64,000 nt of DNA from Nitrospinota bacterium (GCA_029881335.1 JAOUMU010000001.1:35172-99171), one strand, 5' to 3'. Shown: positions 16,438-36,352, counted from the first letter of the stretch. The notes: a model not told the origin generated them from the letters alone. Made by a program: numbers and translations.

Positions 16438-16492
16438 CGAGCGGCGAGCCTTTACTGCAGATGAAGTAAATTCTGAATGGATTCAGAAACCG

Positions 16493-17242: not shown

Positions 17243-17274
17243 AAACCCATTATGCTTCCGAAACAGCGGTCAGG

Positions 17275-17652: not shown

Positions 17653-17669
17653 TTATCCTATCTCCCCGG

Positions 17670-18341: not shown

Positions 18342-18389
18342 ACCGAAACCTCCTTTATCTAATTAATCGCAATTATGCGTGTTCGACAA

Positions 18390-19958
18390 TCAGTCTTCTT
18401 TTCTTCCCACCACAGAGAAGATAAACTGCCCTGCGACCAGCAGGACGAAGACCATCAAAGGAACCATTACCACGGCGGAGCCGGTCTCCGGCTTGAGCAG
18501 AAGCCAGCGCCAGGTGGTCAAGGTGTGCTTGGAGCCGATTTCGCCATTGGAACCGTCCCAATTGGCGAATGCGATGGGAATATACTTGCCCGCCGCGAAC
18601 TGGGTGTCCTTATCCTTGGCGTCGGTGACCAGGTTTCTCCTCATCATCACCTTCCATGTGCCGTCCTTGTACGAGCCAGTGGAAACAAAGCCCGCCGCCG
18701 CCGCGTCCGAAACGTCCTTCTTGCCGGAGCCGATGGTGGAGAACATGCTGCCCGATTGTCCCTTTTCCACATCGCCGCTGTTCCAATACATCATGCTCAC
18801 CGGCCTGGAAGCGTCTCCATGACCGAAATAAGGCTTGCCGGACGCCAGATTGTCCAAATCCAGCGGAGTCTGAATGGCCACGCCATCTGAGCCAAGTGCG
18901 CCCCAAGCCAGCATGGCGGAGGTTGGATCCCCTTTCACGCTCCTTGTCCTGTCGTCCCACTCCAGCAGAAAAGCCACTTCCTTATCGGTAAATGTCGACT
19001 TCACCAGGATGCCGTTGTTGGATGGATCGTAAATCCTCTCATCCTGGATTATCTGAGGCACCAGGAAAAAAGTAGTCCCTTCAGCAATGTCCCAGGCCGG
19101 ATCATTCTCATCCGTGGGCAAAGTCTCCCGGTAGACCCCTTTAACCACGATCTCGCCCTCTTTGACCTCCATGCGGGAATCCGCCAGCGACATCACGTAG
19201 TTGACAACATGCCAGCGATCCTCCACCGAAAGCTTCCCCGCGCCGGTCTTCTCCGCCGCATGGGCCGGCATCGGCGTATTCGGGATACCTGAGGTGATTC
19301 TGGCATAGATATCCTTCGGATCATTTCCACCACGGAAGGTCCAGGGCTGGGTCAGGTTCCGCGGCCACAGTTTGGCGCCGCTCTCCTCTTTCAGCTTCTT
19401 GATAGTGTTCCCCTTGCCACCCTCGCCATGACACTCAAAGCACTTGGCGTCCTTGAACAGCTGCTTGCCTTTGGCGATACTGTCAGGAGAGCTGGGCGCG
19501 GGAGAAGGGTAGGCCATCTCCGGAGGATTTTCCATATCCTCAAACATATCGGTCAGGCTCTTTATATAGGCCACCAGATCCCACCGTTGTTTCTCATCCA
19601 AAACCTTGCTCCACGCCGGCATGCTGGTGCCTGGCATCCCGTCGGAGATCATTCTGAAGAGATCCTCGTCTCTGGGCAGATCCGAATCAGGAGCGCTGGA
19701 CCTGTATTTATATACGCCGTCCGCGAAATTGCGCGGAGGTGGTATCATAAAATCGGCTCCGGGCCCATCGGCCTCTCCCTCTTTCCCATGACACCACCAG
19801 CACTTTTTCATGTAAACGGTCTCGCCGTTTTTCACGTCACCTGCAGCGGCAATTGCCGGACCCGTGAGGGCCGCGAAATACACAGCCAAGGCCACTGCGG
19901 CTGCAACCGTCATTATTCCTTTTGTTGAACGCATCGCTATCCCTTGCCTATAAATCAA
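18390..19958 (-). CDS. dihaem cytochrome c fused to an approximately 260-aa Cys-free domain, with a C-terminal membrane anchor
   Basis: Signal peptide. CWWCHGKEGEADG and CFECHGEGGKGN, each followed by a MPxxxMP-type ligand region. Then a large domain without Cys or His motifs. The protein ends in a hydrophobic helix (VVMVPLMVFVLLVAGQFIF). It overlaps the upstream gene by 4 nt. Confidence 0.65.
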   Translation of the reverse strand: MIYRQGIAMRSTKGIMTVAAAVALAVYFAALTGPAIAAAGDVKNGETVYMKKCWWCHGKEGEADGPGADFMIPPPRNFADGVYKYRSSAPDSDLPRDEDLFRMISDGMPGTSMPAWSKVLDEKQRWDLVAYIKSLTDMFEDMENPPEMAYPSPAPSSPDSIAKGKQLFKDAKCFECHGEGGKGNTIKKLKEESGAKLWPRNLTQPWTFRGGNDPKDIYARITSGIPNTPMPAHAAEKTGAGKLSVEDRWHVVNYVMSLADSRMEVKEGEIVVKGVYRETLPTDENDPAWDIAEGTTFFLVPQIIQDERIYDPSNNGILVKSTFTDKEVAFLLEWDDRTRSVKGDPTSAMLAWGALGSDGVAIQTPLDLDNLASGKPYFGHGDASRPVSMMYWNSGDVEKGQSGSMFSTIGSGKKDVSDAAAAGFVSTGSYKDGTWKVMMRRNLVTDAKDKDTQFAAGKYIPIAFANWDGSNGEIGSKHTLTTWRWLLLKPETGSAVVMVPLMVFVLLVAGQFIFSVVGRKED

Positions 19959-20725
19959 TGATGTTCCGCCATTACCCGAGGCTTATGCCCCGTGTAATCG
20001 TACAGAAAGATGATGACCTTCCAGACTTCCTCTTCACTTAGCAGATGGTGCCAAATCGGCATGGCCGATATCCAGGGAGTTCCCTCCGAAGGCAAGCCCG
20101 GACCGCCCGTGCTTATACGCCAGAAGACGAAAGACTCCGTCAACTGGGCGATGGTGCCGATATCCACAAAATTGGCCGGCATTGGGTTGAATCCTTCCGC
20201 ATAGGGGCCCTTGCCCAGCATCATGTCGCCATGGCAGAAGTAGCAGTTCTGGTAATAAACCTTACCGCCCTCTTCCGAGTGCTTGGCCAAATTCGCCGTA
20301 TCCTCGCGGAAGGGATTTTTTAAAGTCTGCAGGTTGTAGGATTTCCCCCACGCCTTTGCGGCGGATGGCGGCGCAGGATGCACCGACCGCAGTTCCACTG
20401 GCGCGTCGAAAGTGGGCTTAACGTATTGGTACGCCACGTAGGCCCCGAATAGCCCCACCACCAGTATGACTCCCATCCGGAGCCTTCCCTTCGCAGGATT
20501 GGTGTAAAGATCCATGACTGGACCGATCGAGGCGTTATAGCCCTCCTCCGAGAAAGAATTGATCAGCAACGCTCCGGCCACCATGAAGAACACATACATC
20601 TTCATGACCGAAGTGGGAACCACCGGCCAAGTCCCAGGATGCAGCACAGACCCCACCAAGGGGACTCCGAATTTAAGCAACAGGTACCCAACAAGCACCG
20701 TTATCCAAGGTTTCAGTAATTTCAT
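19955..20725 (-). CDS. membrane-anchored (3 TM) monohaem cytochrome c
   Basis: Three N-terminal hydrophobic helices, then NCYFCHGDMMLGKGP with a methionine ligand region (WISAMPIW). Confidence 0.65.
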   Translation of the reverse strand: MKLLKPWITVLVGYLLLKFGVPLVGSVLHPGTWPVVPTSVMKMYVFFMVAGALLINSFSEEGYNASIGPVMDLYTNPAKGRLRMGVILVVGLFGAYVAYQYVKPTFDAPVELRSVHPAPPSAAKAWGKSYNLQTLKNPFREDTANLAKHSEEGGKVYYQNCYFCHGDMMLGKGPYAEGFNPMPANFVDIGTIAQLTESFVFWRISTGGPGLPSEGTPWISAMPIWHHLLSEEEVWKVIIFLYDYTGHKPRVMAEHH

Positions 20726-20742
20726 CAGATAAACCTACCCCC

Positions 20743-21582
20743 TTATTTCTTGCCCGCCAGGGCGTCGACGATCATATTCATTTCCGCAACCGTCATCTTC
20801 CCCGCGTAATCGTCAGGCATCATGTCGGCATCGAACTCTTCCACAATAAAATCATTGGGCTTCAAGATCGATTCGACTATATACTTCTCCGCGGACAAAC
20901 CCTTCACTCTTTTGCCTGCCGTGGAACTCATCTTCGTCAGATCGGGGCCGATATCGCCTCCTTCTTCCACACCAGGCACTATGTGGCAGGAGAGACAGTC
21001 GAACTTGGCGAAAGCCTCCGCCGCGTTCTCCGCCACCCTGATCTCCTCTGGAGCATCATCAGCCGGCGCTCCCTCATCCCCCGTAGGCAGAGGCACTGTC
21101 ACCTCCACGCCAGCCGTATTCTGGAGAAACGCGATAACCGCGTTTATCTCCACTTCTGAAAGCCCGATGGCGCCCTTGCTGACGTCCGGCATGGGGCTAA
21201 TGGTATCGTTTGACCCCTTCTTGCCGAACCCCTCCACCACCATCGCCGAAACGTCTATCATCGATTCGCGGATATACTCCTCAATGTTCGTGGCCTTTCC
21301 CTTGTAGCGGGGATCCTTGATCCGCTCCATGGATACGGAAGCCACCGGCTCCAGAAGCGGGGCGCGACCGCCCACAGGATTGTGGCACAGGGTGCATGTC
21401 CCCTTGCCGTTGTAGATCTTCTCGCCAACGGCGATAAACTGATCCATGGTAATGTCTCCGCCCAGCTTCTCCTCCACGGGAGGCGCCTCCGGCACGATCA
21501 GCGGAAGGCCGAACGTGGTGTATCCGGCGAACCCGCAAATAACCGCCAGGCTGAAAACAACAATTTTAAGTAAAGCTTTCAT
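20743..21582 (-). CDS. dihaem cytochrome c with an N-terminal anchor or signal
   Basis: CTLCHNPVGG and CLSCHIVPGVEEGGDIGPDL. 279 aa. Confidence 0.7.
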   Translation of the reverse strand: MKALLKIVVFSLAVICGFAGYTTFGLPLIVPEAPPVEEKLGGDITMDQFIAVGEKIYNGKGTCTLCHNPVGGRAPLLEPVASVSMERIKDPRYKGKATNIEEYIRESMIDVSAMVVEGFGKKGSNDTISPMPDVSKGAIGLSEVEINAVIAFLQNTAGVEVTVPLPTGDEGAPADDAPEEIRVAENAAEAFAKFDCLSCHIVPGVEEGGDIGPDLTKMSSTAGKRVKGLSAEKYIVESILKPNDFIVEEFDADMMPDDYAGKMTVAEMNMIVDALAGKK

Positions 21583-21592
21583 CTATACCCCC

Positions 21593-23536
21593 TCAGTGCC
21601 CCGCCTCTTGCTCTTCCTTATTCTTGGCGGCCAGAATCGGCATCCAGAACATGAAGAACACGAGCGCCATGAATATCATAACTATGATGGTTACCACCCA
21701 TGCCGCGTAGGGCAGAGTGGGAGTGAACGCCTCTATAGAGTTATCGCGGAACACGGTGTACACGTGCCAGTGCTGACGGATGGCGGACCGGCAATAGCCC
21801 ATCAGCCCCATCAGCCACGTAAAGGAGACCGCAAGCATGAACAGGGCGTACTGCGCCCGGTCCGGCATATGGCCCCACCGGAACACTCCGATATCCTTGG
21901 CCCCCCTGAATTCCAGCGTCTGGAAAACAATACCCAACACACAGACCACCGCCGTGGTGCTCACCTGCGGTATCGACAGCCCGATCCGGATGTTGGCGGG
22001 AATCCAGTAGCTGTATACACCAAGAAACACAATATTGACAATGGCTGCCGTAAAGAGCGCAATCTGGATCGGCAGTCCGTTTCTGGCCCAGAAACCGTCA
22101 CCCGCAGGTCGTGAATTGCTCCGCATGAACAACTGGAAGCTTAAAAACGTGGACAATATCAGGATATTGACCGCCGTATTTTTCGCCGCCATGACTCCCA
22201 GCGGACCCAACACGGAGTGATGCGCCCCGCCGATCTGCGAAAGCTCCTTACTGTTCATGATCAGCGTATGGGGAGTGAACCACGTGAGAAACGCGATCAC
22301 GATAATGATCCCCAGCGGTTGAATGATGTAGTAGAACCTCTTGGAAGCTTCCGTGCGGCCCAAAGAGCACCAGAGGTAGTAGTTGGCCGACAGGAATATG
22401 GCCCCGATCAGCACCGCCTGCAGAATAAAGAGCCAGGCAAAGACACCACCCATCAGGGTGATACCCATCTGCTGCGAATAGTCATAAACCTCCTTGGTGA
22501 GCCAGTATCCCGCGAATGGCAACGGCAGAAGGCCGGCCATGGCGATAATGAACGAGGTGTACCCCATCCAGTCGTAGTGGGCCTTCTCCTCCGCCGAGCT
22601 GGTGGTAATAAACTTGAACGCCGCATAGGCCGCCGTCAGAGAACCACCGTAGGCGATGTTGGCTATGAACCGGTGCAGGTTCAGCGGATTCCAAAGCTTG
22701 CCATGAATCGCCGCCCAGGAGTCGCCCAGGAACTGGCCCTCCGGCCCAATCCCCGAGGGCGCCATCATGAACGAGGCCCAGGAGTTGGAAAGAACCATCA
22801 ACACCATGCCGGAGCCGTTAAGCCCCAAGCCCAGGCCCAGGTGCAACCACTTCAGACCCGGCGAGGAACTCATCTTGTCCCACCCGTAATAATAGGTGTA
22901 AACAAAGAAGCTCTCCGCGAAGAACATCAAGGCGTAAATGATCATCGTCTTGCCAAAGACAGAGGTCATGTACGCCATAAAATCCGGATAGAAGACCACC
23001 AGCAGGATCGAAAGCAAGCCTCCAAAAGAAGCCGCCAGTGAAAACCCGGTCATGGTCACCTTCATAAACTCGTGCGCCATATGGTCGTATCGCTTGTCCC
23101 CGGAGAGGACACCGATAAGCTCGATCACCCACACGAAGATGGGCACTCCCAGCACGAAGGCGGCGAAGAACAAATGAAGTTGCGCCGCAATCCAAACAGC
23201 CAGGCGGCCGTCAACCCCCGCCACCCGGGGATAGTCCTTCTCCTCCAGAGCGGGAGTGGTCATCGGCTTCCAACCCTCGTCGGCCGCCTCCTCCCCTTCC
23301 GTCGCGGCCCCTTCGGCAGGCGCCATCTCTGCGGAGGCTTCATCATGTGCAGGCTGCGCGGCCTCATTGGCCCACGCCTGCCCGGCAAAGAATCCCGCGC
23401 CATCGGACATGGGAGCCAGGCCCCCAGCCAGAACGACCATGAGGAACAGGCTCCCCACAAGCGCGAGAAACCGGCCTCCCTTGTTTTTTTCCTTCAGCCG
23501 GTCACAAACGCCGGCGCTCTTGGTCAGCTTTGACAA
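21593..23536 (-). CDS. cytochrome bd-like (CydA-related) polytopic membrane protein; first gene of the cytochrome operon
   Basis: 647 aa with about 14 predicted TM helices. The first helices resemble CydA helix 1-2 (W..AAQLHLFFAAFVLGVPIFVWV...). The CydA GRQPW signature is absent and no cydB is adjacent. Residues 40-110 are an Ala/Glu-rich extension. The call rests on topology and partial motif similarity only. Confidence 0.5.
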   Translation of the reverse strand: MSKLTKSAGVCDRLKEKNKGGRFLALVGSLFLMVVLAGGLAPMSDGAGFFAGQAWANEAAQPAHDEASAEMAPAEGAATEGEEAADEGWKPMTTPALEEKDYPRVAGVDGRLAVWIAAQLHLFFAAFVLGVPIFVWVIELIGVLSGDKRYDHMAHEFMKVTMTGFSLAASFGGLLSILLVVFYPDFMAYMTSVFGKTMIIYALMFFAESFFVYTYYYGWDKMSSSPGLKWLHLGLGLGLNGSGMVLMVLSNSWASFMMAPSGIGPEGQFLGDSWAAIHGKLWNPLNLHRFIANIAYGGSLTAAYAAFKFITTSSAEEKAHYDWMGYTSFIIAMAGLLPLPFAGYWLTKEVYDYSQQMGITLMGGVFAWLFILQAVLIGAIFLSANYYLWCSLGRTEASKRFYYIIQPLGIIIVIAFLTWFTPHTLIMNSKELSQIGGAHHSVLGPLGVMAAKNTAVNILILSTFLSFQLFMRSNSRPAGDGFWARNGLPIQIALFTAAIVNIVFLGVYSYWIPANIRIGLSIPQVSTTAVVCVLGIVFQTLEFRGAKDIGVFRWGHMPDRAQYALFMLAVSFTWLMGLMGYCRSAIRQHWHVYTVFRDNSIEAFTPTLPYAAWVVTIIVMIFMALVFFMFWMPILAAKNKEEQEAGH

Positions 23537-24294
23537 TATAGCCCCCTTTTATGTATCTGTATCGGTATCGTTTTTAATGATTGCGCCGCTATTAATGACC
23601 TTCAGGCTGGAATAACCACAGCCCCTGCCACCTTTGCGCTGTTTCGTCCAAAACATAGAAACAGACTAGAAACACACACAAAGCGATCGCGAACACAATT
23701 ACCTTCTGTCCAGTCAAAAGATTCCCCTTTGCAAATAGTTTGATATTCCATCAAGGCAGACAATGCGCCAATACCCCCGCCCCTATTAAGAGAGGTTTAT
23801 CAAGCAAAAACCATGCCCCGAAAAACCATCATCGCGCCATACCCCGTAATTACAACAGGTTGCGTTAATCCCTCAACCACTAATCCTCGATATAAGGCGA
23901 TTTGCCTAGCCTTGGCAGCCGATTTTGCCAGTTACGTTGCATTCGGATAACAAAACATCATAACGCTTTGTTGAATTCCGATCACAATATGGATTCATGG
24001 TTCCATCTCCTCCGTGAAACCATACTCCTTGAGCGTCCCGATATACAAAACCGCCGAACTTCCCCGAATCCCCAAAGGCTCCAAACATAATACTAGAAAA
24101 TATATGCAAACAAAAGGACTTTCCAGGCCTCCATGCCAAAAATCGAAAGCATTTCTCATTTAGGCGTATACATTTCGTGCAATTCGCGCCGAATCATGTA
24201 AGGTTTCATGTTGACAAACTATTCAAAAAGTTGCATTTTAATAAAACGTTAGTGGTTCCATTCTCAAACTCATTTAACCTATTTGGAGATACCT

Positions 24295-24393
24295 GTGAAG
24301 AATTTTACCTTTCTTGACTGGTTTATTCATTTCGCCATAGGAATAAACCTTTTTGTTTGCGCATTTATCGTATGGTTTGTGATGATGCGATGA
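24295..24393 (+). CDS. possible small hydrophobic peptide ORF (32 aa) in the long intergenic region
   Basis: GTG start preceded by GGAGA 7 nt upstream. It encodes VKNFTFLDWFIHFAIGINLFVCAFIVWFVMMR, a single TM-like helix. A TTGACA -35-like hexamer lies about 80 nt upstream. There is no homology evidence. Confidence 0.2.
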   Translation: MKNFTFLDWFIHFAIGINLFVCAFIVWFVMMR

Positions 24394-24501
24394 CCTGTTA
24401 ATGGAAAGCACTCAAGATTTGCGCCTTTCCCCTCCCGGGCGACATGGCGCCGATACAGCGGATAGCGCAACACTATAGTATACGGAGCGGTAAATAACGG
24501 C

Positions 24502-25968
<1,467 letters not shown>

Positions 25969-25980
<12 letters not shown>

Positions 25981-26645
25981 AAGAGCTTTCCCTGCTGGTG
26001 CAGCATGGCGAGAACGTCCAGGCCGTTTCCTGCGCCGAGAAACTTTTGGCCCAGTCGTGCCCCATGGAAGATATCGTAAAGGCTCTCTCCGATGGCCTGG
26101 AAGTTCTCCGCAACAAGTGCACCATAGAAAACTTTCAGTTGCTCGACGTTTTACTTGCCACCAGGGCCATGGTGGAGGTGGTGGATGAATGCCTGGCCAG
26201 AAAGCTCCAGAACGAATTGGACAATCTGGCCACCACCCACGAAGCCACCCAAAGCGCAGAGCCGACCAGGACTTTGGTCATCGGCACTATCCAGGGGGAT
26301 ATCCACGATCTTGGAAAGCATATTGTGGCCACCTTGTGCAGATTCAAAAACTTGCGGGTAATAAATCTGGGCAAGGATGTTTCCGTGGAGCAGTTCGTGG
26401 ACACAGCCATCGCCGAGAATGCCGATTTCATTGGCGTCTCCAGCCTTATGACAGTCTGCCTCTCCAGGATAAGCGAGATAAAAAATGAGCTGGCGCGGCG
26501 GGGACGAAACGAGATTACGGTCGTGGCAGGGGGTGGCGCCGCCCAACAAAGCTCGCCTGACAGGCTCAATGTCGATTATGTCGCACACGACGCTTTCGAC
26601 GGGCTCGATTATTTTCTCAGCGACATCCTTCCAGTTAAAAGTTGA
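25969..26645 (+). CDS. cobalamin-binding corrinoid protein (MtaC/MtbC-type: helical cap plus Rossmann B12-binding domain)
   Basis: DxHxxG motif (GDIHDLGKHIV), SxL (SSLMT) and GG (VVAGGGA). The ATG at 25969 overlaps the last codons of the regulator. The longer track ORF from 25767 is rejected because it lies inside the regulator gene. Confidence 0.75.
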
Positions 26646-29383
26646 ATTCCACAGAGAGAATACAAGCTGTCATCGGCTTTGGCCGGGTGGATAGGCCACC
26701 CGTGGCCCCGGAGCTTATCGCGGTCACGGCCACCATCTGTGGCGCGGCGGTGGGCGATTATGTCAAGGATGGCGCCGTTATCGCCCAATGCCAGATGGAA
26801 GCCGCACGCATAACCGGCTCTGATGCTTTATTCGCCGCCGCCGACCTGTGTGTGGAGGCGGAAGCCCTGGGATGCGAAGCCCATTTTCCCCGGAACAACT
26901 ACCCGCATATAAAAAGCCCTATCGTCCACTCCTATTCAGACCTGAAACAGCTTCGCCTTCCAGATCCCACCTCGGATGGAAGGATGCCCCAGATACTGAA
27001 AGCCGTGCGGCTTCTGGCTGACGATTCGGATGGCCGCCTGGTCCTCGGCAACGCCGTAGGACCCATCACCATGGCTTCCAGAATCATGGATATAGAGAAG
27101 ATGCTCTATATGATAGTGGATCAGCCAGATAAATTCAGGGAGATAATCGAGTTTTGCGAAGGTGTCGCCAGCCGGTTCGTCGACGCGATCCTGGAGGCCG
27201 GCGCCGACGGAATATTGATCTTTGATCCTTCAGCTTCCCCGGCGCTCCTGCCACCCAGGATTTTCCGCGAATTCGAGCTGGAGCCGATCCGCCGCATCCT
27301 GGCGGGGGCCAAGCAAAAAAATCCATCCGTAGTCACCTGGTACTCTGTAGCGGGCCCGGTCCAGACCAACACCGCCATCATCTCCGCAGTGGGGGCCGAT
27401 GTCACCACGGTGGATTACCCCGTACCGCTGCAAACCGCCATGGAATACTCCGGCCACACAGTGATAAACGGCAACATCAGGCCCGCCCTCTTTCTGGAAG
27501 GGACGCCCTCGCAGGTATATGACGAGGCGATGACACTTTTAGACCAAACTCGCCTGTCGGAGCGATTCATACTCGGAAGCGGCTGTGAAATCCCGATCAA
27601 CTCACCGGCAAGGAACATAATGGCCCTGCGACGCGCAGCCAATGATCACGCCTCCCAGATTACCCAGATCAACGAACCAGCGGCAGGGAAAGTCCGGGCG
27701 ACGTTTCACCCCCACAACCGCGCCATTTATGTGGAGACAGGCCAGACCATTCTGGAGGCGGCCGCCATGGGGGGCGCCCCCATCACCACATATTGCGACC
27801 TCACCGGTGTATGCGCCGAATGTGTGGTGACCGTGTGCAATGGGAAGGTCTCCGCGCTGGACATGATTGAAGAGGCCCAACTGGGAAGCCTGGGCGAAGG
27901 GGGAGGAAGGCTGGCCTGCCTCGCCAAAATCCAGGGAGACGTGGAGATCTACGTTCCCTTTTCCTCGCGCCGCATCCCGGACAAGGCTTGCGCCCCTGCC
28001 CAACTTTTCGACGAATCGACCTGTGCCGATTCCCACTCGTCGGATTTCGACCCCGTGTTCCCCCCCATGCGGGAGAAGGCCAGGATCTCCGCCGCCGATC
28101 ATGGCTCCAGGCTGCTTCATCAGGATAATTTGGGCGCAGGGGCACCTTGCGGGGGCAATTTGCCCTGTCATGGGGCGATGTCCCGCTCCTCGTTCGCCGT
28201 GGCGGTGGATATGTCTGGTGAAAACGCCGTGGCCTATGTCCACGACATTGGCAGCGCTGAATTCCGCCACGCAGGCTCCTTCCTGGGCCCGGTGGCCGCC
28301 GTGGGGCTCAATTCCGCTGAAATCGATACCAGAAGAGCCTTGGACCCTCCAATAAGCCGCAAACTGCGGGAAGAGTCCACCCGGCTTTTCAATTCCATAG
28401 TCAACTGGCTTTACGAAAGCCACTCTATAATGCCGGAGCGAGTACGGGGCCTTCTGGTCACCGGCTGCCCCATGGCCGACGATACCTTGCGGCCCCCCGG
28501 CGAGTCCCTGCCTGGAGAATGGGCGCAAATCACCTGCGGAGGGATCGCCGAAGCGCGGATGTCCGACTATCCCGGCCTGAAGGTGCTTATGTGGCCTAAA
28601 CCACCCCACCGATTCGGCGGCGCATCCAGAGATGCCGCATTCATCCTTGCCACCATGCCCTCCCCCGCTGCTGAACCTGCGCTGTTTATACACCTGGGTT
28701 CATCCGGTTCGATAACCGCCCACTACCAGGGGCGATATTACACCCATCGATTCCCCTTTGGTAATTTGCTGGAGCGCCCTATCCCCGGCGTATCCCGGGG
28801 ATTTTTCAACTTCCTGATTCATGAGGCGCAAGTCGATGGGCGGGGTGTAACCAGTTTCAAAACCTTCAACGGCTCGGCCCCCCTGGGATTGCTGGGTACG
28901 GCCATGGTGGGAGCGGCCGCCGGAATGAAACGCCACGGAATCATCGACGACAAGGGCTTTGTCCAGGGCAAGTGGGCCCCTGTGGTGGAAAACCGATTTG
29001 TGGTGGTTCCCAAGCAAAAGACCGCCGGATACAGCCCTATCACCATCGGCTGGGAAGATATCGACAAGCTGATGATAGGGACGGGAGCATGCTCTCGGGC
29101 CGTATCGGATGTCCTGGACGCTGTCCATCTTTCCCCGGAGCAGGTGGAACGGGTTTTCGTCTCCGGCCCGTTTGGCGTGGTGGCGGACCCGGCGGACCTG
29201 ATTGAACTCGGCTTTATCCCGGATTCGTGGAAGGGGAAAATACAGTTTGTTAAAAACGCCGCAGGGCTGGGTGCGCGGAAGGCGCTTTTCTCTTCCCGGG
29301 CCAGAAAAAGGGCGGTGGTCATAGCATCCTCCATGGCGCCCCTGTCCCAGGCCCCAGGCGCCAGATATGGAGAATCCAAATGA
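26642..29383 (+). CDS. three-domain fusion: MtaA/CmuA-family (URO-D fold) methyltransferase, plant-type [2Fe-2S] ferredoxin, and RACo-type ASKHA ATPase (DUF4445), i.e. a reductive activator of corrinoid proteins
   Basis: Residues 1-340 match the URO-D/MtaA pattern (PVQTNTAIISAVGADVTTVDY, ...GSGCEIP). Residues 350-440 contain C-x5-C-x2-C...C (YCDLTGVCAECVV...RLACLA). Residues 450-913 are Gly-rich ASKHA-like. Start and stop overlap the neighbouring genes by 4 nt (ATGA). Confidence 0.7.
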   Translation: MNSTERIQAVIGFGRVDRPPVAPELIAVTATICGAAVGDYVKDGAVIAQCQMEAARITGSDALFAAADLCVEAEALGCEAHFPRNNYPHIKSPIVHSYSDLKQLRLPDPTSDGRMPQILKAVRLLADDSDGRLVLGNAVGPITMASRIMDIEKMLYMIVDQPDKFREIIEFCEGVASRFVDAILEAGADGILIFDPSASPALLPPRIFREFELEPIRRILAGAKQKNPSVVTWYSVAGPVQTNTAIISAVGADVTTVDYPVPLQTAMEYSGHTVINGNIRPALFLEGTPSQVYDEAMTLLDQTRLSERFILGSGCEIPINSPARNIMALRRAANDHASQITQINEPAAGKVRATFHPHNRAIYVETGQTILEAAAMGGAPITTYCDLTGVCAECVVTVCNGKVSALDMIEEAQLGSLGEGGGRLACLAKIQGDVEIYVPFSSRRIPDKACAPAQLFDESTCADSHSSDFDPVFPPMREKARISAADHGSRLLHQDNLGAGAPCGGNLPCHGAMSRSSFAVAVDMSGENAVAYVHDIGSAEFRHAGSFLGPVAAVGLNSAEIDTRRALDPPISRKLREESTRLFNSIVNWLYESHSIMPERVRGLLVTGCPMADDTLRPPGESLPGEWAQITCGGIAEARMSDYPGLKVLMWPKPPHRFGGASRDAAFILATMPSPAAEPALFIHLGSSGSITAHYQGRYYTHRFPFGNLLERPIPGVSRGFFNFLIHEAQVDGRGVTSFKTFNGSAPLGLLGTAMVGAAAGMKRHGIIDDKGFVQGKWAPVVENRFVVVPKQKTAGYSPITIGWEDIDKLMIGTGACSRAVSDVLDAVHLSPEQVERVFVSGPFGVVADPADLIELGFIPDSWKGKIQFVKNAAGLGARKALFSSRARKRAVVIASSMAPLSQAPGARYGESK

Positions 29384-30417
29384 AAGAAGGTTTTTTCAAA
29401 AAGCTCCTGGACAACGCTTCCGACCTGATCTGGGCCGTGGACATGGAGGGGCGCTTCATATACATAAACGACAACATCAAGGAATGGGGCTACGACAAGG
29501 AGGAGTTGATCGGCCAGCCGCTGTTGAGCATTCTAAACGCCCAGCGGATAGGGAAACGGGAGACCCGCCGCTCCATAATGGGCATCCACCAGACTTACGA
29601 GATGGAGATCGTGGACAAGAAGGGAACCGCCCACAAAGTGGTGGTCAAATCCTCGCCGCTGGAGGAGGAGGGGACAATCGTGGGAGTCATGGGGATCATC
29701 CGCGACATCACGGAGCTGGAGCGACTGGAGAGAAAACTGAAGGATGAGGAACGGCTCGCCTCCCTGGGCCGACTGGCCACCGGCATCGCCCACGAAATCC
29801 GCAATCCCCTTTCATCTGTGAAGATGAACCTTTCGATCCTGAAAAAGCGACTCAGCCCCAAGGGAGTGGATGTGGAGCATTTCGAGATCGCCCAGGAGGA
29901 GGTATTCCACCTGGAGAAGATCGTCAGCGAGCTTCTCGATTACGCCAAGCCGATCACGCTGGATCTGAAGATATGCGACCTGACCCAGTTGATCGATGTC
30001 GCCATTGCCGCCGTGGCGGCCCCTTGCGCAGAAAAAGGTGTCACCATCAGGACGGAGTATGACGGCAGAGGGCACATGGCGCTGCTGGACAAGACCAAGA
30101 TCACCCAGGCGCTGATCAATATATTGCTCAACTCGGTGCAGGCCTCCCTGGAAAACTCGGAGATTTTCGTGGGCGCGGAGACTGTGAAGTTTCCCTCGTC
30201 CGACAGGGCCAGGGTGGTGATTCGCGATCAGGGGTATGGAATCCCGGAGGATAACCTGAAATATATATTCGATCCGTTCTTCACCACCAGAAAGGATGGC
30301 ACCGGCCTGGGACTCTCCATCGTCCGCAACATCGTGGACAACCACGAAGGCTCGATCACTATAGAAAGCGAACAGGGCAAAGGCGCCACCGTGTCCATAG
30401 AGCTTCCCGCGCCGTAG
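29380..30417 (+). CDS. cytoplasmic PAS-domain histidine kinase
   Basis: No TM helix. PAS domain (LLDNASDLIWAVDMEGRFIYIN), H-box (AHEIRNPLS), and N/G boxes (GTGLGLSIV). Confidence 0.8.
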   Translation: MKEGFFKKLLDNASDLIWAVDMEGRFIYINDNIKEWGYDKEELIGQPLLSILNAQRIGKRETRRSIMGIHQTYEMEIVDKKGTAHKVVVKSSPLEEEGTIVGVMGIIRDITELERLERKLKDEERLASLGRLATGIAHEIRNPLSSVKMNLSILKKRLSPKGVDVEHFEIAQEEVFHLEKIVSELLDYAKPITLDLKICDLTQLIDVAIAAVAAPCAEKGVTIRTEYDGRGHMALLDKTKITQALINILLNSVQASLENSEIFVGAETVKFPSSDRARVVIRDQGYGIPEDNLKYIFDPFFTTRKDGTGLGLSIVRNIVDNHEGSITIESEQGKGATVSIELPAP

Positions 30418-30755: not shown

Positions 30756-31250
30756 TCACTTGCCGGTGATATCCCCATACCCGGCGTAAAGGATCTCTTT
30801 TGTGATTCTGCCCATGTGCCGGTTCAGTATCACGCCGTTTTTATCTATGAAATAAGTGCATGGCAGGCCGAACACCTGGAACTCATCTGTGGCCTTGCCA
30901 TCCTCGTCCAGGGCCACCATGAAGGTGAAGTTGTTTTTTTTCACAAACTTTTCCACCAAAGCCTTCGACTCCTTGACGTTTATCATCAATAGCTCCAGCC
31001 CCTCGCCTTTTTTCAGATGATAAAACTTCTCCAGCTCCGGCATCTCCTCGATGCAGGGGACGCACCATGTGGCCCAAAAGTTGATTATCAGGGGCTTGCC
31101 CGCATAATCGCCCAGCTTGATCGGCTTGCCGTTCAATCCATCCAGCTCAAAAACGGGGGCTGGAGCGGGCTTCGGTTTTGGCGGAGCCTCCATGGGCGCT
31201 TCCGGCTGGCAGGCGGCCGTCGTCAGCGCCAGGAACAGCAGGGAGGCCAT
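30756..31250 (-). CDS. TlpA/ResA-like periplasmic thiol:disulfide oxidoreductase (lipoprotein)
   Basis: WATWCVPCIEEMPELE thioredoxin CxxC motif. The start is moved to MASLLFLALTTAAC, which has a signal peptide and lipobox; the track ORF begins upstream at 31370. Confidence 0.7.
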   Translation of the reverse strand: MASLLFLALTTAACQPEAPMEAPPKPKPAPAPVFELDGLNGKPIKLGDYAGKPLIINFWATWCVPCIEEMPELEKFYHLKKGEGLELLMINVKESKALVEKFVKKNNFTFMVALDEDGKATDEFQVFGLPCTYFIDKNGVILNRHMGRITKEILYAGYGDITGK

Positions 31251-31261
31251 TGATAATTTCC

Positions 31262-32128
31262 TCACTGTCCCACCCCCTCCTCGATCTCTTTGGGATATTG
31301 AATGGGCAGCTCCCAGCGGAACACCCTGGTCTCCGGCCCCCCCACGTTCTCTATGCCCAGTTCCACCCACTTTGGGGCGTGCTTCCCGCCGGTGACTTTC
31401 CTGAACCTAATGTCCGCTTCGTAGTGGTGTTTGTCGGCGGTCTGAAATCGCAGCCGCCATGGCGGTATGGTGGACGCCTTTCCATCGGGGGTACGTAGCC
31501 AGGCGATATTATCCAGCTCGGCCAAAGCTACTTCCCCCTCGTGAACGGTGAAGGCGACAATAAAGACATCGTAATCTTTCAGCTGATATTCGTCGATCAG
31601 GTGTTCGGCGCCGATACTTTTCAGGTATTGGGGCGTGGCGAGCACCACATCGCAATATATATCACCCTGCCCCATATCGTTGCGCCACACGGCGTGGTGG
31701 ATCGCCTTGCGCACTTCGTAGGAGTATCCGGACTTGGTGGTGGGATACTTTTCCTCCAGGTAGCGGATTATCACATCCGCCTCCCTCCCGGAGATTTCCA
31801 CCTTCTCCTTCATCCTCATCCGCTCCACCACCTGGATCCACCCGGAAGGGGAGAGAATGGCGGTTATCATGGCAGACTCGCCGTGGCATTGCCGATAGCA
31901 GCGTTTCTGGTACACATATCGCACATCGTCCGTTCCCAGCTCCCTGATGTATCCCAGGTTGAAAAGCTCCAGCCTGACCGCCCGCACATAGGTTCGAGCG
32001 TCCGAATCGAAATCCTCGCGGGAGTCGTAAAACGCAAGGTAGACCAGAGCCACCGCGGCGAAAGCCAACGCGACAACGGCCACTGTGGCTACGGCCATCC
32101 ATTTGACGAGTTTAATTATTATCCTCAT
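31262..32128 (-). CDS. membrane-anchored hypothetical protein with a CX3CH motif
   Basis: N-terminal TM helix. Motif QKRCYRQCHGES is C-x3-C-H, not canonical CxxCH. No other recognisable domain. Confidence 0.35.
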   Translation of the reverse strand: MRIIIKLVKWMAVATVAVVALAFAAVALVYLAFYDSREDFDSDARTYVRAVRLELFNLGYIRELGTDDVRYVYQKRCYRQCHGESAMITAILSPSGWIQVVERMRMKEKVEISGREADVIIRYLEEKYPTTKSGYSYEVRKAIHHAVWRNDMGQGDIYCDVVLATPQYLKSIGAEHLIDEYQLKDYDVFIVAFTVHEGEVALAELDNIAWLRTPDGKASTIPPWRLRFQTADKHHYEADIRFRKVTGGKHAPKWVELGIENVGGPETRVFRWELPIQYPKEIEEGVGQ

Positions 32129-32904
32129 TGACCGGAGGGATATACACAGCGAAATCCGTAATCGTTGAACAGCCTGGCGCCATCGTCGCCCAGCCTGGCG
32201 GCCGCCCGCAACGAGGTACGGGGAGTCAGCCAGGAACCGCCCTTCAAAAGCCGCAGCTTCTTATTCTCGTCATACCATCCATCCTGCCATTCCCACACGT
32301 TGCCTGCCATGTTCAGCGCGCCGAAAGGGCTGGCGCCCTGGGGCCGGGAATCCGCCGGGATCGTGCCGCCGGTCATATTCTCGCCACTCTGTTCCAGGGC
32401 AAAGGAGCCTACCTTCAGCCGGGAAACACCGGTGGACCCCATGAACATCGCCTTTTCAGGATCGAATTCGTTCCCCCAGGGGTACACCCGCCCGTCATCC
32501 CCCCTGGCCGCCCGCTCCCACTGTCGCTCGGTAGGGAGGACACCACCCGCCTTTTTGCAAAACTCGTCGGCTTTGGCCCATGTCACATTCACCACGGGAT
32601 GATCCACCAGGTTGGGAGGATACAGGTGGTCTGCGAATATGGATTTGAACCTCCGGTTTGTCACTTCAGTTTTGTCGACCAGGAATGCCGGGACGAACTC
32701 CTCTCGCTCCGGAGTCTCATCCTTGTACCAAGAAATCCTGGCGCCGGAGCCAGCCAGCAGCTCGGCAAGTTGAGCCTCGTCCGTGCCCAAGGTGGCCTGG
32801 CCGGCGGGAATAAGGATGCGGCCGGAATCGACTTCCTCTGCCCAGACATGGGGGATCACGGCGAAGGCAAGGGTAATTGTTATCAACGCAGGGGCGCCCC
32901 TCAT
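32125..32904 (-). CDS. secreted FGE-sulfatase (SUMF1-like) domain protein, paralogue 3
   Basis: VTNRRFKS, GGVLPTERQWERAARG, YPWGNEFD, GGSWLTP and GFRCVYP. The start is moved to MRGAPALITITLAFAV (signal peptide). That ATG overlaps the upstream stop as ATGA. Confidence 0.7.
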   Translation of the reverse strand: MRGAPALITITLAFAVIPHVWAEEVDSGRILIPAGQATLGTDEAQLAELLAGSGARISWYKDETPEREEFVPAFLVDKTEVTNRRFKSIFADHLYPPNLVDHPVVNVTWAKADEFCKKAGGVLPTERQWERAARGDDGRVYPWGNEFDPEKAMFMGSTGVSRLKVGSFALEQSGENMTGGTIPADSRPQGASPFGALNMAGNVWEWQDGWYDENKKLRLLKGGSWLTPRTSLRAAARLGDDGARLFNDYGFRCVYPSGQ

Positions 32905-33350
32905 TGCTCTGCTCCCTTTCTGCGCGCCTGGATCCAGTCCATTCCGGTCATGATGAATGTATAGACAAGCGCGGTCCATACCAGCGTCACCAGGGTGAAC
33001 AACACCATGTCCTTGACTGGGTAGCCGCCCCTGGAGACCTGATACCACTTTCCGGCCATTCGCTGGGCAGGGGTGAGCATTGCCTCTCCACCGTATCTCT
33101 TAAAGAAATAGGCCATGATTTCCTCTTTGGACATGCCAGCCATCAGTTTGTCGCCAATATTGTTCTTCCATTGCAGGCCGCAGCTCATATGGCAATCCTC
33201 CAGCACCATGGGACACTCGCAGGGGCAGGCAAGTGAATGGGAGACTCCCATGACGGAGTTGTCCGACGCGGAGACCAGAAAGATATATCTGGCGGCCAGG
33301 ATGGTGATTACAACACCCAAGGAGACAGCCCCGACTATGGCCCTGGTCAT
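32901..33350 (-). CDS. small membrane protein with a CPCEC (CxCxC) motif between an N-terminal signal/TM and a C-terminal TM; CcmH-like topology
   Basis: LACPCECPMVLEDC is periplasmic and lies between two hydrophobic segments. It resembles CcmH/PCYCGC-type metal or thiol-handling proteins. Assignment is tentative. Confidence 0.35.
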   Translation of the reverse strand: MTRAIVGAVSLGVVITILAARYIFLVSASDNSVMGVSHSLACPCECPMVLEDCHMSCGLQWKNNIGDKLMAGMSKEEIMAYFFKRYGGEAMLTPAQRMAGKWYQVSRGGYPVKDMVLFTLVTLVWTALVYTFIMTGMDWIQARRKGAEQ

Positions 33351-34111
33351 GACGAAGCCTTCTTCCCCCTATTGCGGCGAAACACCCACACGCCCAGGAA
33401 TCCCAAGGCGCCGATAGCCAGCAATATCTCCCCGGTATGTCCGGCAAACATCCCTGGTGTCGCCATGGCGCTAAACTGCTTTTCCACAGAAGGCATTATG
33501 TCCTCCTTGGAGTAGGAGACAGATATTTCCTTGCCCTGCCCGGCCTTCACCTCCTTGAACAGGTACTTGTAATATTCGAACCCCTCTTTTTCATATGTCC
33601 CGACCCAGCCGGGGCTAATTTCAAAACGCCCTGCCCTGGCGGGCTTTTGCACATGCACTTCCAGAGTGTTGATCGCGTACAGCGCCGGAACCTTGTGGAC
33701 GAATTTGCGGACTGCCCCGCGGATGGGGGAGAAGGGGGCGTATTGGTAGTCGATAAAGAAATCGGAATATGGCAGCTTCACGTCCACCATTTTTTCCGCG
33801 CCTTCGGTCTTTATGTCGAAAAGCTGACAGAAGTGATGCCCGCTCGGCGACAGGCTGCACACATCGGTGAGCTTCGTCACCTCCATCGGCAGACCGAAAC
33901 GCGCCTCGGCGGGGAACTTATTCTTGTCGGCGAACTTGCCCTCCATTATCACCAGCACCTGGCTGCTGTCATACTCCGGCATCAGGGTTACCTTCATGCG
34001 GCCCACCACCAGCCCCTTTTCATAGGCCGCTGCCGCAGGTGACACCACCAGCGCAAAAACCGGTCCCATCGAAACCAGCGCCAGGACCAACAATCTTTTT
34101 ATAGCGCTCAT
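33347..34111 (-). CDS. hypothetical periplasmic protein with a C-terminal TM anchor
   Basis: Signal peptide, CSLSPSGHHFC, and a C-terminal hydrophobic helix. No assignable domain. Confidence 0.35.
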   Translation of the reverse strand: MSAIKRLLVLALVSMGPVFALVVSPAAAAYEKGLVVGRMKVTLMPEYDSSQVLVIMEGKFADKNKFPAEARFGLPMEVTKLTDVCSLSPSGHHFCQLFDIKTEGAEKMVDVKLPYSDFFIDYQYAPFSPIRGAVRKFVHKVPALYAINTLEVHVQKPARAGRFEISPGWVGTYEKEGFEYYKYLFKEVKAGQGKEISVSYSKEDIMPSVEKQFSAMATPGMFAGHTGEILLAIGALGFLGVWVFRRNRGKKASS

Positions 34112-34112
34112 A

Positions 34113-34892
34113 CTATTTCTCCTTCCCCTGGGCGCCGTGGTCCATCTGGCCGTGGTCCATCTGGCCGTGGTCCATCTGGCCGTGATCGTGGCCCGGCTGA
34201 TTTACGAACCTGCCCACCAGGTAGCTTTTATATATTGTCATGTTGTCCGTCAGGATCATCACGCTGATAGCCATCATCACCGCGGCCGCCGCGATCCGGA
34301 CTCCTTTTCGCGCGCCGGATCTACCGGATTTCAGCGCAATCGCCATCAATCCCGCCGCCAGCGCCGAGATGGCCGTTAACTCCCCCACCGTATACATCAC
34401 CAGCAACAGCCCGCCGCGGACCACGGTCTGATCCGCCTGAGTGAGGCCGTATATATAAGTCAGCGTGGGGGTGACGCATGGCTTGTATGCCAAGGCCAGG
34501 GCCCCGCCGTAAATGAAACCCAACACCCTGCCGCCGATCTTGACCGCTGTGGAGGTTCTGTCCAGAGTCAGCGCACCGGCGATATATAGAGCCAGCAGGG
34601 CTATGATCACGCCACCGAACTGGTTTGCTATCGCCACATGCTCAAACACCGCCTTCGAAAACGCCGTGGCGCTCATCCCCATGGTGGTAAAAACCACTAT
34701 GAAACCCGCCGCCGCAAGGGCCAGATTCACGCAAAAGGCCCTCCATGGGCTGACCGATTTCTCCTGGCCACTTTCCAGCAGGGCCGAGCCCATGACATAG
34801 GCCACAAAGAATGGGATCACCTGCATGAGGCAGAAGACCCACACGGAAAAAAAGGCATGTACGCCACCGGCGTACGCTTCGATCAGGGACAT
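34113..34892 (-). CDS. CcdA/DsbD-like transmembrane thiol-disulfide transporter with a C-terminal His-rich (DHGQM)x3 tail
   Basis: Six TM helices. It has the conserved TM1 Cys (FFSVWVFCLMQVIPFF) and TM4 Cys (AYKPCVTPTL) characteristic of CcdA. C-terminus is GHDHGQMDHGQMDHGQMDHGAQGKEK. Confidence 0.65.
   Translation of the reverse strand: MSLIEAYAGGVHAFFSVWVFCLMQVIPFFVAYVMGSALLESGQEKSVSPWRAFCVNLALAAAGFIVVFTTMGMSATAFSKAVFEHVAIANQFGGVIIALLALYIAGALTLDRTSTAVKIGGRVLGFIYGGALALAYKPCVTPTLTYIYGLTQADQTVVRGGLLLVMYTVGELTAISALAAGLMAIALKSGRSGARKGVRIAAAAVMMAISVMILTDNMTIYKSYLVGRFVNQPGHDHGQMDHGQMDHGQMDHGAQGKEK
34137..34190. repeat. 3.6 copies of a 15-bp in-frame tandem repeat encoding the His-rich tail
   Basis: GTGGTCCATCTGGCC repeated exactly at 34137, 34152 and 34167, then a degenerate fourth unit. 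Confidence 0.9.
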
Positions 34893-34912
34893 AGGTAAAT
34901 ACTACTCCGTCT

Positions 34913-35566
34913 TTACGCTGATGGCGGCGATGCGCCGGGTTGGCCTTGCGGCATTATGCTTTTCAGGCCATCCTCCAGCTGGCCGAGCCGTTCCACCTTC
35001 CCCACGAAGAACGATTGGATCACTCCATCCCCGTCCACGAAGACCGTGGTGGGCGTGATACTGACCCCCACCCGGTCGGCGAACATCTGGCCCCCTTCCA
35101 CAGCCACGGGGAATTCTAGCCTGTGGGTTCTGGCGAACTTTTCCAGGTTCTCCTGGGAGTCCTGGATTCCCACGAACATGACGTTTAGCCCGGAGGCTTT
35201 TCCCTCCTCCACGGCCTTTCGAATATTCGCCACCGACTCGTGGGAGCATGGGCACCAGTTGGCGTAGAAGTAATAGAGCATCGGCTTGCCCATAAATCCC
35301 TGGCGCGACGCCTGGCCGCCACCCAGCAAGCTCAGGTTGAACTCAGGAAGGGCGTCCCCATGGTCCAGCAGCCTGGCTTCCACGGGGCGTGCGGAATAGT
35401 CATATACAGCGTTTAATAGCACAGCCGCGGCGGCCAGCAGGATCAGCCTGTTCACCTTCCGCGAAAAGTCAACCGTCGCCGCTGTCCCGGCGGGGGTGTC
35501 CAGCTCCCCCACGCCCTCAATGCTTGTGGTTCGGGTCGTCATGATTATGTTGATTCGCTCCGCCAT
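34913..35566 (-). CDS. thioredoxin-fold (TlpA-like) periplasmic protein with an atypical WCPC motif
   Basis: Its length, the anchor, and ANWCPCSHESV where a TlpA CxxC would sit. The track ORF overlaps the upstream gene by 50 nt, so the start is uncertain. Confidence 0.5.
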   Translation of the reverse strand: MAERINIIMTTRTTSIEGVGELDTPAGTAATVDFSRKVNRLILLAAAAVLLNAVYDYSARPVEARLLDHGDALPEFNLSLLGGGQASRQGFMGKPMLYYFYANWCPCSHESVANIRKAVEEGKASGLNVMFVGIQDSQENLEKFARTHRLEFPVAVEGGQMFADRVGVSITPTTVFVDGDGVIQSFFVGKVERLGQLEDGLKSIMPQGQPGASPPSA

Positions 35567-36164
35567 CGGAAGGGTTCATCTCCATGGCCGGAGGCTGGAC
35601 AGGCTGCGGATTATTCTCCGGTGTCCCCAGCTTCCTTTGCATCTGATCCAGTCCGGTCATGTGTCCGATCTTCAGCTCCTCCCTGCCAGAGAGGTAAGCC
35701 TCAATTGGGCGTTGATCCACCGGCGTCAGGAACAACGCCTTGAGCCTGTCGTAATGGCCAATGAGCTTCAATATATCCTGCTCCCGGAAGTCCTTCTCCC
35801 AGTTGCCCACCAAAGCGTTCCACACCTGCACAATGGCCACTGCCTGGGGCTCTGTTATATTTGTGAACTCCACGTTAGGCTTAGTCTTGCGATAATTTTC
35901 TATGAACGTCTGCATATGAGGAACCACCGCCACGAATGGTGGACCACACCTGGGACAGTACATTTTTATCCGTTCGTCGGAATGACACTGGGTGCATATC
36001 CTCCTGGCCATGTCATAGGCCTCCAGCGGTTGATATTTTATATAACCGTTCGCCTTGGCCTCGCTGACTATCCGCTGGCTAAGCGGATTCGGAATGAATA
36101 TTACACCCAGAACCAGCAGCGTCAACACGCCCAGCGTAATTAACACAATGCGTTTTTTCTTCAT
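35517..36164 (-). CDS. membrane-anchored monohaem c-type cytochrome with an additional CPRC pair
   Basis: N-terminal TM, CTQCHSDERIKMYCPRCGPPF, and a His-rich C-terminus (HNHDDPNHKH). It is the first gene downstream of the sigma54 promoter. Confidence 0.5.
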   Translation of the reverse strand: MKKKRIVLITLGVLTLLVLGVIFIPNPLSQRIVSEAKANGYIKYQPLEAYDMARRICTQCHSDERIKMYCPRCGPPFVAVVPHMQTFIENYRKTKPNVEFTNITEPQAVAIVQVWNALVGNWEKDFREQDILKLIGHYDRLKALFLTPVDQRPIEAYLSGREELKIGHMTGLDQMQRKLGTPENNPQPVQPPAMEMNPSDGGANQHNHDDPNHKH

Positions 36165-36336: not shown

Positions 36337-36352
36337 AGCAATATTTGTGCCG
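36337..36352 (-). promoter_or_regulatory. putative sigma54 (-24/-12) promoter driving the minus-strand cluster 36164->30756
   Basis: The minus strand reads CGGCAC-AAATA-TTGCT. The invariant GG and GC have canonical spacing and it matches TGGCAC-N5-TTGCW at 10 of 11 positions. It lies about 175 nt upstream of the start at 36164. Two sigma54 EBPs are encoded in the window. Confidence 0.45.

Follow-up and report, generated by a model that had tools for sequence, protein, structure and literature searches.

A 64,000-nucleotide stretch of DNA from a Nitrospinota bacterium (hereafter the window) encodes, at positions 26642-29383 of the plus strand, a 913-residue protein in which a URO-D-fold methyltransferase-like domain, a plant-type [2Fe-2S] ferredoxin domain (Fer2) and an activase-like domain of the RACo type are joined in one polypeptide. 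On balance, and by a modest degree, we favour the reading that this fusion is no catabolic enzyme but serves as accessory subunit in a corrinoid-based module for signal input to a two-component system. Its gene is the third in an operon of four, as is evident from successive overlaps of 13 nucleotides (nt; regulator/corrinoid protein), 4 nt (TTGA; corrinoid protein/fusion) and 4 nt (ATGA; fusion/kinase). The first gene (24502-25980) encodes an NtrC/AtoC-type sigma54 response regulator with REC, AAA+ and Fis-type helix-turn-helix (HTH) domains, the second (25968-26645) a corrinoid protein (CoP) of 225 residues with a B12-binding_2 cap and a B12-binding Rossmann domain, and the last (29380-30417) a soluble PAS-HisKA-HATPase histidine kinase of 345 residues, all on the plus strand. 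The three-part input, i.e., CoP, methyltransferase-like and activase parts, is found in every state of fusion and with interchangeable signalling outputs, which argues for a sensory module rather than a catabolic pathway. More tentatively, and with slightly less than even confidence, we propose that the module represents an undescribed class of signal input, in which the redox or methylation state of the CoP cobalt would be set by a zinc-less methyltransferase and a RACo-type activase and reported to outputs as varied as PAS/GAF histidine kinases with sigma54 regulators, hybrid kinases and an HD-GYP protein. No description of the fusion, or of an operon combining corrinoid protein, methyltransferase, activase and kinase, was found in the literature.

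The fusion protein, its zinc site and its activase half

The reading frame of the fusion begins with TTG and contains no internal stop in the window translation; homologues start with MNSxER at the same position. A preliminary description of this DNA had recognized an MtaA/CmuA-like N terminus, a ferredoxin-like middle domain and a C-terminal region like RACo/DUF4445, an assignment borne out by Pfam, by sequence matches in the PDB and by structure prediction. Pfam places URO-D at residues 3-335 (E 9.9e-63), Fer2 at 358-430 (E 2.4e-7) and RACo_C_ter (PF14574, DUF4445) at 732-903 (E 2.5e-23). In NCBIfam, the N terminus is nearest to MtaA/CmuA (E 1.7e-43) and the C terminus to AcsV (E 4.7e-25), both far under the curated cut-offs (for the N terminus, 149 bits against 235 with TIGR01463, and 111 against 400 with NF040654 MtaA). 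PDB sequences matched are RACo (3zyy, E 3.8e-23, fusion residues 352-448 and 511-907) and Methanosarcina mazei MtaA (4ay7, E 5.8e-18). An AlphaFold2 (AF2) model built on an alignment of 58 homologues has a predicted local distance difference test score (pLDDT) of 85.3 and a predicted template modelling score of 0.78, and Foldseek matches it to RACo (E 1e-24) and to MtaA (4ay7_A, TM-score 0.89, root-mean-square deviation 2.2 Å). The protein can thus be divided into an MtaA-like domain of URO-D fold (residues 1-340; 26642-27661), a plant-type [2Fe-2S] ferredoxin domain (residues about 350-440; 27689-27961), a linker (residues 441-513; 27962-28180) where RACo has its own linker and middle domain, with residues 479-513 predicted to be disordered, and a RACo-type ASKHA domain (residues 514-905; 28181-29356) that is predicted to fold and has degenerate nucleotide-binding motifs. 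The four cysteines of the ferredoxin pattern suspected earlier (C385, C391, C394 and C426) align with the cluster cysteines of RACo and are kept in 57 of the 58 homologues, the exception being P0042.

That the fusion might be two adjacent genes joined by an assembly error had also been raised as a possibility. An artefact or frameshift is ruled out because the open frame has counterparts in independent assemblies: 58 clusters of full-length homologues from independent metagenomes (818-989 residues, 30-100% identity) all share the URO-D/Fer2/RACo architecture. It is a rare architecture nonetheless: of the 150 top-scoring matches from a library of 1.84 billion representative proteins, only about a dozen are full-length fusions. 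A database entry annotated 'ASKHA domain-containing protein [Nitrospinota bacterium]' has exactly the sequence of the window protein, and names such as this or 'uroporphyrinogen decarboxylase' reveal little of the probable role of such proteins.

The best-conserved part of the fusion is its URO-D domain, which nevertheless departs from MtaA at the zinc site. In M. barkeri MtaA, the zinc that serves for thiol activation is held by H240, C242 and C319. The fusion has the motif WYSVAG (27338-27355, plus strand) in place of 'vlHiCG', with Ser235 for the zinc His and Ala237 for the zinc Cys, while the motif GSGCEIP (27575-27595, plus strand) supplies the distal ligand Cys315 followed by an invariant Glu316. 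This confirms the impression, gained without an alignment to MtaA, that the distal Cys is present and the proximal H-x-C pair is not. The register of the substitution is the same in the HMMER alignment to MtaA and in a MAFFT alignment with unfused relatives carrying HICG. Both substitutions occur in 58/58 homologues, in which the third ligand alone is retained, and W233, S235, V236, A237, G238, C315 and E316 are likewise invariant in all 58. Judged from this invariance, the loss of two of three zinc ligands dates far back and has become fixed, and is no local defect. It is compatible with the earlier suggestion that the methyl-transfer partner is not a simple thiol. The nearest relatives outside the family make up a wider clade with Ala, Thr or Val at the position of the middle Cys (W-x-x-[IV]-[ATV]-G ... 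SGCE), and relatives further out are of the HICG type. Many polar residues are invariant across the URO-D domains of the family and form a set that resembles an active site. In summary of the comparison with MtaA (M. mazei, 4AY7), the TIM-barrel fold, the adjoining gene for a cognate corrinoid protein and the distal Cys of the G-C motif are shared, whereas the window family has Ser/Ala for the zinc His/Cys, scores below the NCBIfam cut-offs, has no MtaB-type partner, and is joined to ferredoxin and ASKHA parts within a two-component operon.

The activase half follows the plan of RACo and its relatives (Carboxydothermus hydrogenoformans RACo, 3ZYY and 4C1N; AcsV), in that an N-terminal plant-type [2Fe-2S] domain precedes an ASKHA domain, and the motifs DIGTTT, DIGTNGE and AGPAFE are intact in most of the family. 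The window fusion differs. Its phosphate-1 motif reads AVDMSGEN (28202-28225, plus strand) and its phosphate-2 motif FIHLGSSGS (28685-28711, plus strand), where RACo and 49 of the 58 homologues have D[IVLM]GTT[TN] and D[IVLFM]GTNGE, and the third motif, AGPAFE, has become FPFGNLLER; the same 49 are canonical in all three motif types. The RACo middle domain (Pfam Raco_middle, PF17651), present in most homologues, was not detected in the window fusion at E<=0.1. Ser398 of RACo ligates Co(II) in the complex with its partner (PMC4934906). The alignment puts Pro705 of the window fusion at this position and Ala in most of the family. The partner differs as well, being a His-on MtaC-like CoP in the module and CoFeSP in the case of RACo.

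The nine members with degenerate motifs (P0001-4, 6, 10, 16, 18 and 42) form a single clade in a neighbour-joining tree, the window protein included. Within this clade, the URO-D domains are as conserved as elsewhere (mean pairwise identity 61%), while the ASKHA parts are only 30-37% identical, against 48-49% in canonical members; one of the nine, P0042, is also the homologue that has lost the four ferredoxin cysteines. Going by what is known of ASKHA motifs, the window fusion, given its decayed ATP motifs and undetected middle domain, has most likely lost ATP-driven reductive activation. The methyltransferase-like domain, the [2Fe-2S] domain and the ASKHA scaffold are, as far as the sequence indicates, all kept. 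A further step appears in the metagenome-assembled genome (MAG) HyVt-426 (L026, DRJW01000257.1), where a minimal operon (L026:875-3654) consists of a response regulator, CoP, a 345-residue URO-D-only protein with WYSVAG and GSGCEIP, and a PAS kinase; nothing is left of the ferredoxin and RACo parts. The preliminary description had proposed that a covalent fusion couples Co(II)-to-Co(I) repair directly to methyl transfer. Degenerate ATP motifs and the deletion of the RACo half in L026 make this doubtful for the window fusion, though it may hold for the 49 homologues with canonical motifs. That the [2Fe-2S] domain is retained while the ATPase decays would be consistent with Co(III)/Co(II) chemistry having taken over, or with pure state-dependent binding, which is speculation on our part.

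Decay of this kind could also mean that the whole module is a relic, degenerating first in its ASKHA half and heading for loss in the window lineage. The degenerate motifs, the faster divergence of the ASKHA part and its deletion in L026 would all be expected of a relic. Against this, the frame of 913 codons is open, nine divergent clusters have kept about 470 ASKHA codons free of stops, the ASKHA domain is folded in the AF2 model (pLDDT mostly 70-90), and URO-D, CoP and kinase are highly conserved in the same clade. We regard a relic as very improbable.

Signalling neighbours and catalytic relatives

The preliminary description passed over the genes beside the fusion, and it is this conserved setting of CoP, kinase and sigma54 regulator that points to signalling rather than catabolism. 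The flanking genes, identified with Pfam and NCBIfam, follow the NtrB/NtrC-type pattern: a PAS-HisKA-HATPase kinase with an AtoS/ZraS-like core and the H-box AHEIRNPL, and a regulator with REC, sigma54 AAA+ and HTH_8 domains. The CoP carries the His-on motif GDIHDLG (DxHxxG) together with SSLMT (SxL) and GGG, and its closest NCBIfam model is that of methyltransferase-cognate corrinoid proteins (TIGR02370, E 4e-28, below the cut-off). Its cap contains the motif LRNKCTIENFQLLDVLLATRAM (CoP residues about 45-70) with a Cys that is conserved in the aligned CoPs of the module. The shared form of the cap motif, LRNKCTIENFQLL, with its conserved Cys, is also present in P0065, a CoP-UROD fusion, and absent from the catalytic CoP of Geomonas. 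Possible roles of this Cys are those of a cobalt ligand or a redox-active thiol.

The partners are better conserved than the fusion itself, at 51-84% identity to the window for CoP and 51-88% for the kinase, against 30-61% for the fusion. For example, the CoPs of Nitrospinota loci are 63-84% identical; those of deltaproteobacterial loci reach 51-52%, while the accompanying fusions reach only 30-34%. In L004 the kinase has 88% identity and the fusion 61%, and in L001 the figures are 51% and 36%. The gene order regulator-CoP-fusion-kinase recurs in about 20 Nitrospinota loci with fusions only 35-40% identical to that of the window, and in deltaproteobacterial loci CoP and fusion are followed by a membrane-bound hybrid kinase. 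Altogether, the module was found in Nitrospinota, Nitrospirota, Planctomycetota (Brocadiaceae) and Delta- and Gammaproteobacteria.

Beyond these loci, the zinc-less URO-D relatives occur unfused, fused to Fer2-RACo as in the window, or fused to CoP, and their outputs vary. Locus L089 (6001-12241) has a CoP-UROD fusion, a separate Fer2-RACo and a PAS hybrid kinase, while L090 (5342-12096) has CoP, a UROD-Fer2-RACo fusion, a PAS kinase and a REC-HATPase protein. All parts are separate in L092 (5320-12081; Nitrospirota MAG), with CoP, UROD, DUF1638, RACo, a GAF kinase and a sigma54 regulator. In L091 (5354-10021; gammaproteobacterial MAG), CoP, UROD and RACo are accompanied by a PAS-HD-GYP protein instead of a kinase. 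As a control, hidden Markov models were run over 94 sequences (93 fetched loci and the window), and a kinase core within 6 kb on the same strand was counted; six HICG motifs that the automatic count had misassigned as zinc-less were corrected by eye. Such a core is present at 33 of the 35 zinc-less URO-D loci and at 3 of the 59 HICG-type loci, an effective sample that is smaller than these counts suggest, with many of the zinc-less loci being orthologous. The two zinc-less loci without a kinase are L091, with its HD-GYP output, and L029, a Brocadiaceae contig.

Several details of individual loci can be recorded here. L029 and L023 (L023:1397-5486), both from Candidatus Brocadiaceae MAGs of the anammox family, carry an orthologous fusion that is 32-44% identical; in L023 it is preceded by genes for two proteins with CxxCxxCC domains and followed by a Gp49/HTH pair resembling a toxin-antitoxin system. 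The corrinoid protein family of the module does occur in Brocadiaceae (P0307, P0317). In several Nitrospinota loci (L005, 2507-4378; L006, 2799-4586; L011; L019; L022), a second kinase (dCache_1-HATPase_c) lies directly upstream of the sigma54 regulator, and the window has none there. The deltaproteobacterial hybrid kinases that follow the fusion (L003:10887-13700, L008:3269-5482) have a periplasmic PilJ-type domain, which we take to be related to the sensor domain of NarX/NarQ. A nitrate/nitrite link was considered on this ground and is not relied on, as similarity to NarQ/NarX is slight (E 0.004 to 3e-8) and probably arises through HAMP.

The families of the module also occur in operons that look like ordinary catalytic systems. 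In Geomonas silvestris Red330 (L058:5296-12843), the genes run CoP, URO-D(HICG), CobW GTPase, URO-D(HICG), RACo and a hydantoinase/oxoprolinase-like protein, and similar operons are found in L037 (Nitrosomonadales), L078 and L032, in all covering cultured Geomonas and many MAGs, Desulforhopalus MAGs included. They share with the module the same three families in the same order, and one URO-D paralogue has GRMP and FILGSGCEVP in common with the fusion. They differ in having two methyltransferases with intact HICG, a CobW metallochaperone and no adjacent kinase. An origin of the fusion by simple joining of the adjacent URO-D and RACo genes of such an operon was considered and set aside: the URO-D part of the fusion is closer to the first paralogue, which is not adjacent to RACo. 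Nor is this kind of fusion unique to the window family: P0105 (L093:3149-6034, metagenomic) is a 961-residue zinc-type MtaA-Fer2-RACo fusion with HICG and PACG ligands and canonical ASKHA motifs. Its domain order is the same and its size similar. Its URO-D part is only 27% identical to that of the window fusion, so that it probably represents an independent fusion event. It is encoded in an ABC transporter operon (an NMT1-like binding protein, two permeases and an ATPase) with neither CoP nor kinase.

These relatives bear directly on the view that the window operon serves corrinoid-dependent methyl transfer in metabolism, the fusion making for efficient Co(II)-to-Co(I) repair and the kinase and regulator merely controlling expression according to substrate. 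Every part of the module is homologous to a catalytic system (MtaA, MtbC/MtaC-like CoP, RACo), P0105 demonstrates that MtaA-RACo fusions occur in metabolic settings, and the many invariant polar residues of the URO-D domain are what an active enzyme should have. In addition, 49 of the 58 homologues keep both the ATP motifs and the [2Fe-2S] cysteines, which implies that selection has favoured genuine Co(I) chemistry. The gene content speaks otherwise. The module has a single methyltransferase domain, and in none of the approximately 35 module neighbourhoods inspected was a second methyltransferase (MT-I or MT-II) or a pterin-binding partner found, whereas the classical operons carry two URO-D genes and CobW. 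No member has the zinc site for thiol activation, the window fusion has degenerate ATPase motifs, and L026 has lost the RACo half while keeping the kinase. Moreover, the associated genes are varied signalling outputs, HD-GYP included, and not transporters or downstream metabolism, and the CoP and fusion genes stand between regulator and kinase with overlapping codons. Taken together, a metabolic role appears unlikely.

A proposed corrinoid-based sensor

We know of corrinoid methyltransferase triads (corrinoid protein, methyltransferase and ATP-dependent activase) only as catabolic or biosynthetic machinery of anaerobes. In the sensor module favoured here, the cobalt state of the CoP, i.e., Co(II) as opposed to Co(I), CH3-Co(III) or Co(III), would be the signalling variable. 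The zinc-less MtaA-like domain would dock on the CoP and either add or remove a methyl group with a non-thiol partner or read the upper face of the corrin. In ancestral or canonical members, the [2Fe-2S]/ASKHA half would re-reduce Co(II) at the expense of ATP, much as RACo does. The PAS kinase may then read the state of the CoP, or of the CoP-fusion complex, and phosphorylate the sigma54 activator, which would probably control a cluster for a bd-like oxidase and c-type cytochromes and another for periplasmic thiol redox proteins (described below). RACo-type activators bind their corrinoid partner according to the oxidation state of its cobalt (PMC7317905, PMC4934906), which would give the module a built-in way to read that state. 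Guessing from the neighbours, the most likely signal is an oxidant or a redox condition (O2 or hypoxia), a choice favoured because those neighbours are respiratory.

The same architecture could instead report on methyl donors or C1 status, and this is the main alternative for the signal. Here the URO-D domain would act like an MT-I and methylate Co(I)-CoP, the kinase would read CH3-Co(III)-CoP, and RACo would keep the cobalt as Co(I). The clade of nearest relatives, with its replaced middle Cys, fits non-thiol substrates, the invariant polar residues resemble an active site, and most members have a canonical activase, which is needed only for the nucleophilic chemistry of Co(I). However, the neighbours are respiratory and thiol-redox genes and not those of C1 metabolism or methylotrophy, no donor can be named, and a Co(I) step is difficult to square with the activase having been lost in the window clade unless a RACo acts in trans. 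We consider a methyl-donor signal distinctly unlikely.

B12-based sensing is known to us only as the sensing of light or of B12 itself, by proteins of the CarH and AerR types. Methyl-Co(III) is photolabile, and one could picture a B12-dependent photoreceptor (CarH/AerR-like) or a sensor of cobalamin availability in which methyltransferase and activase regenerate methylcobalamin after photolysis. B12-binding domains are indeed known light sensors with predicted two-component partners (PMC8717448, PMC11796333), and the CarH/LitR, AerR/PpaA and predicted photoglobin-B12 modules likewise use a B12-binding_2 plus B12-binding protein as the sensory element, coupled to transcription or to two-component signalling (PMC8717448). 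Those systems sense light through adenosylcobalamin or photolysed B12 and have neither methyltransferase nor reductive activase, whereas the CoP of the module belongs to the methyltransferase-cognate type and is accompanied by enzymes that would set its cobalt state. Its match to methyltransferase-cognate corrinoid proteins (E 4e-28) is far better than that to CarH (E 1e-5). It contains no Trp at all, so that the CarH signature Wx9EH is absent, and it has no HTH either. The source records, moreover, come largely from places without light, being MAGs of groundwater, hydrothermal vent and deep-sea dive samples. On the strength of CoP type, missing signature and habitat, the photoreceptor reading was rejected as highly improbable.

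Several points weigh against a sensor module. The whole case is built from genome comparison, and the signal itself is guessed from neighbouring genes. Two-component genes may simply regulate the catabolic genes beside them. If Co(I) chemistry is involved, the loss of the ATPase in the window lineage would demand a trans-acting activator. In the Brocadiaceae loci L023 and L029, there is no adjacent CoP and no kinase directly downstream of the fusion. A direct CoP-kinase fusion was sought among 155 CoP homologues and none was found. Lastly, sigma54-like promoter matches in the window and in single loci do not exceed the expectation from shuffled sequence, and for this reason the assignment of a regulon is weak.

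Should the proposed class of signal input be real, it would be a sensor with cobalt redox or methyl-transfer chemistry as its read-out. Its hosts would be environmentally important and mostly uncultured nitrite oxidizers and anammox relatives, whose unusual cytochrome bd-like terminal oxidases it would probably control. In the window lineage, where the activase half would now be a pseudo-ATPase, the sensor would have moved away from Co(I) chemistry. The series from unfused to fused, then ATPase-dead, and finally RACo half deleted offers a natural evolutionary experiment on which parts are essential.

Neighbouring clusters and their possible regulation

Two gene clusters flank the operon and, from their synteny with the module, may form its regulon. 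The first (13074-23536, minus strand) is respiratory, encoding a cytochrome bd-like oxidase subunit I, at least four c-type cytochromes (one with an EB_dh haem-b domain) and a cytochrome b. The oxidase subunit has 647 residues and matches the Pfam family Cyt_bd_oxida_I only in part. The second (30756-36164, minus strand) consists of seven genes convergent with the operon and is probably concerned with thiol redox, judging from Pfam and NCBIfam matches: two ResA/TlpA-like thiol-disulfide oxidoreductases, an FGE-sulfatase-like protein, a DsbD_TM-like membrane protein and three further proteins with little or no family match, one of which has a sub-threshold match to a haem-binding domain. In Nitrospinota, the operon adjoins one or both of these clusters despite differences in order and orientation. 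The homologous thiol-redox loci in L004 and L006 have a CcmH gene in addition, and genes for COX1/COX2, SCO1, superoxide dismutase, cytochrome c peroxidase or Sox proteins lie near the module in other loci.

Each cluster is preceded by a weak candidate for a sigma54-type -24/-12 promoter. The sequence GGGCATGGTTTTTGCT (23803-23818, minus strand) lies 267 nt upstream of the bd-like oxidase/cytochrome c operon, and CGGCACAAATATTGCT (36337-36352, minus strand) lies 173 nt upstream of the ResA-like/DsbD_TM-like/FGE-like cluster. Comparable sites stand before the orthologous oxidase in L006 and L009, and the thiol-redox site has a counterpart in L004. As target promoters, these two candidates upstream of syntenic clusters are no more than suggestive.

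The interval between the respiratory cluster and the regulator gene (23537-24501) is non-coding apart from small open reading frames. Further along the window, on the minus strand, lie genes for a GAF-HisKA-HATPase-REC hybrid kinase (38327-40468) and for a 1105-residue dCache-PAS-PAS-GGDEF-EAL protein (42409-45729).

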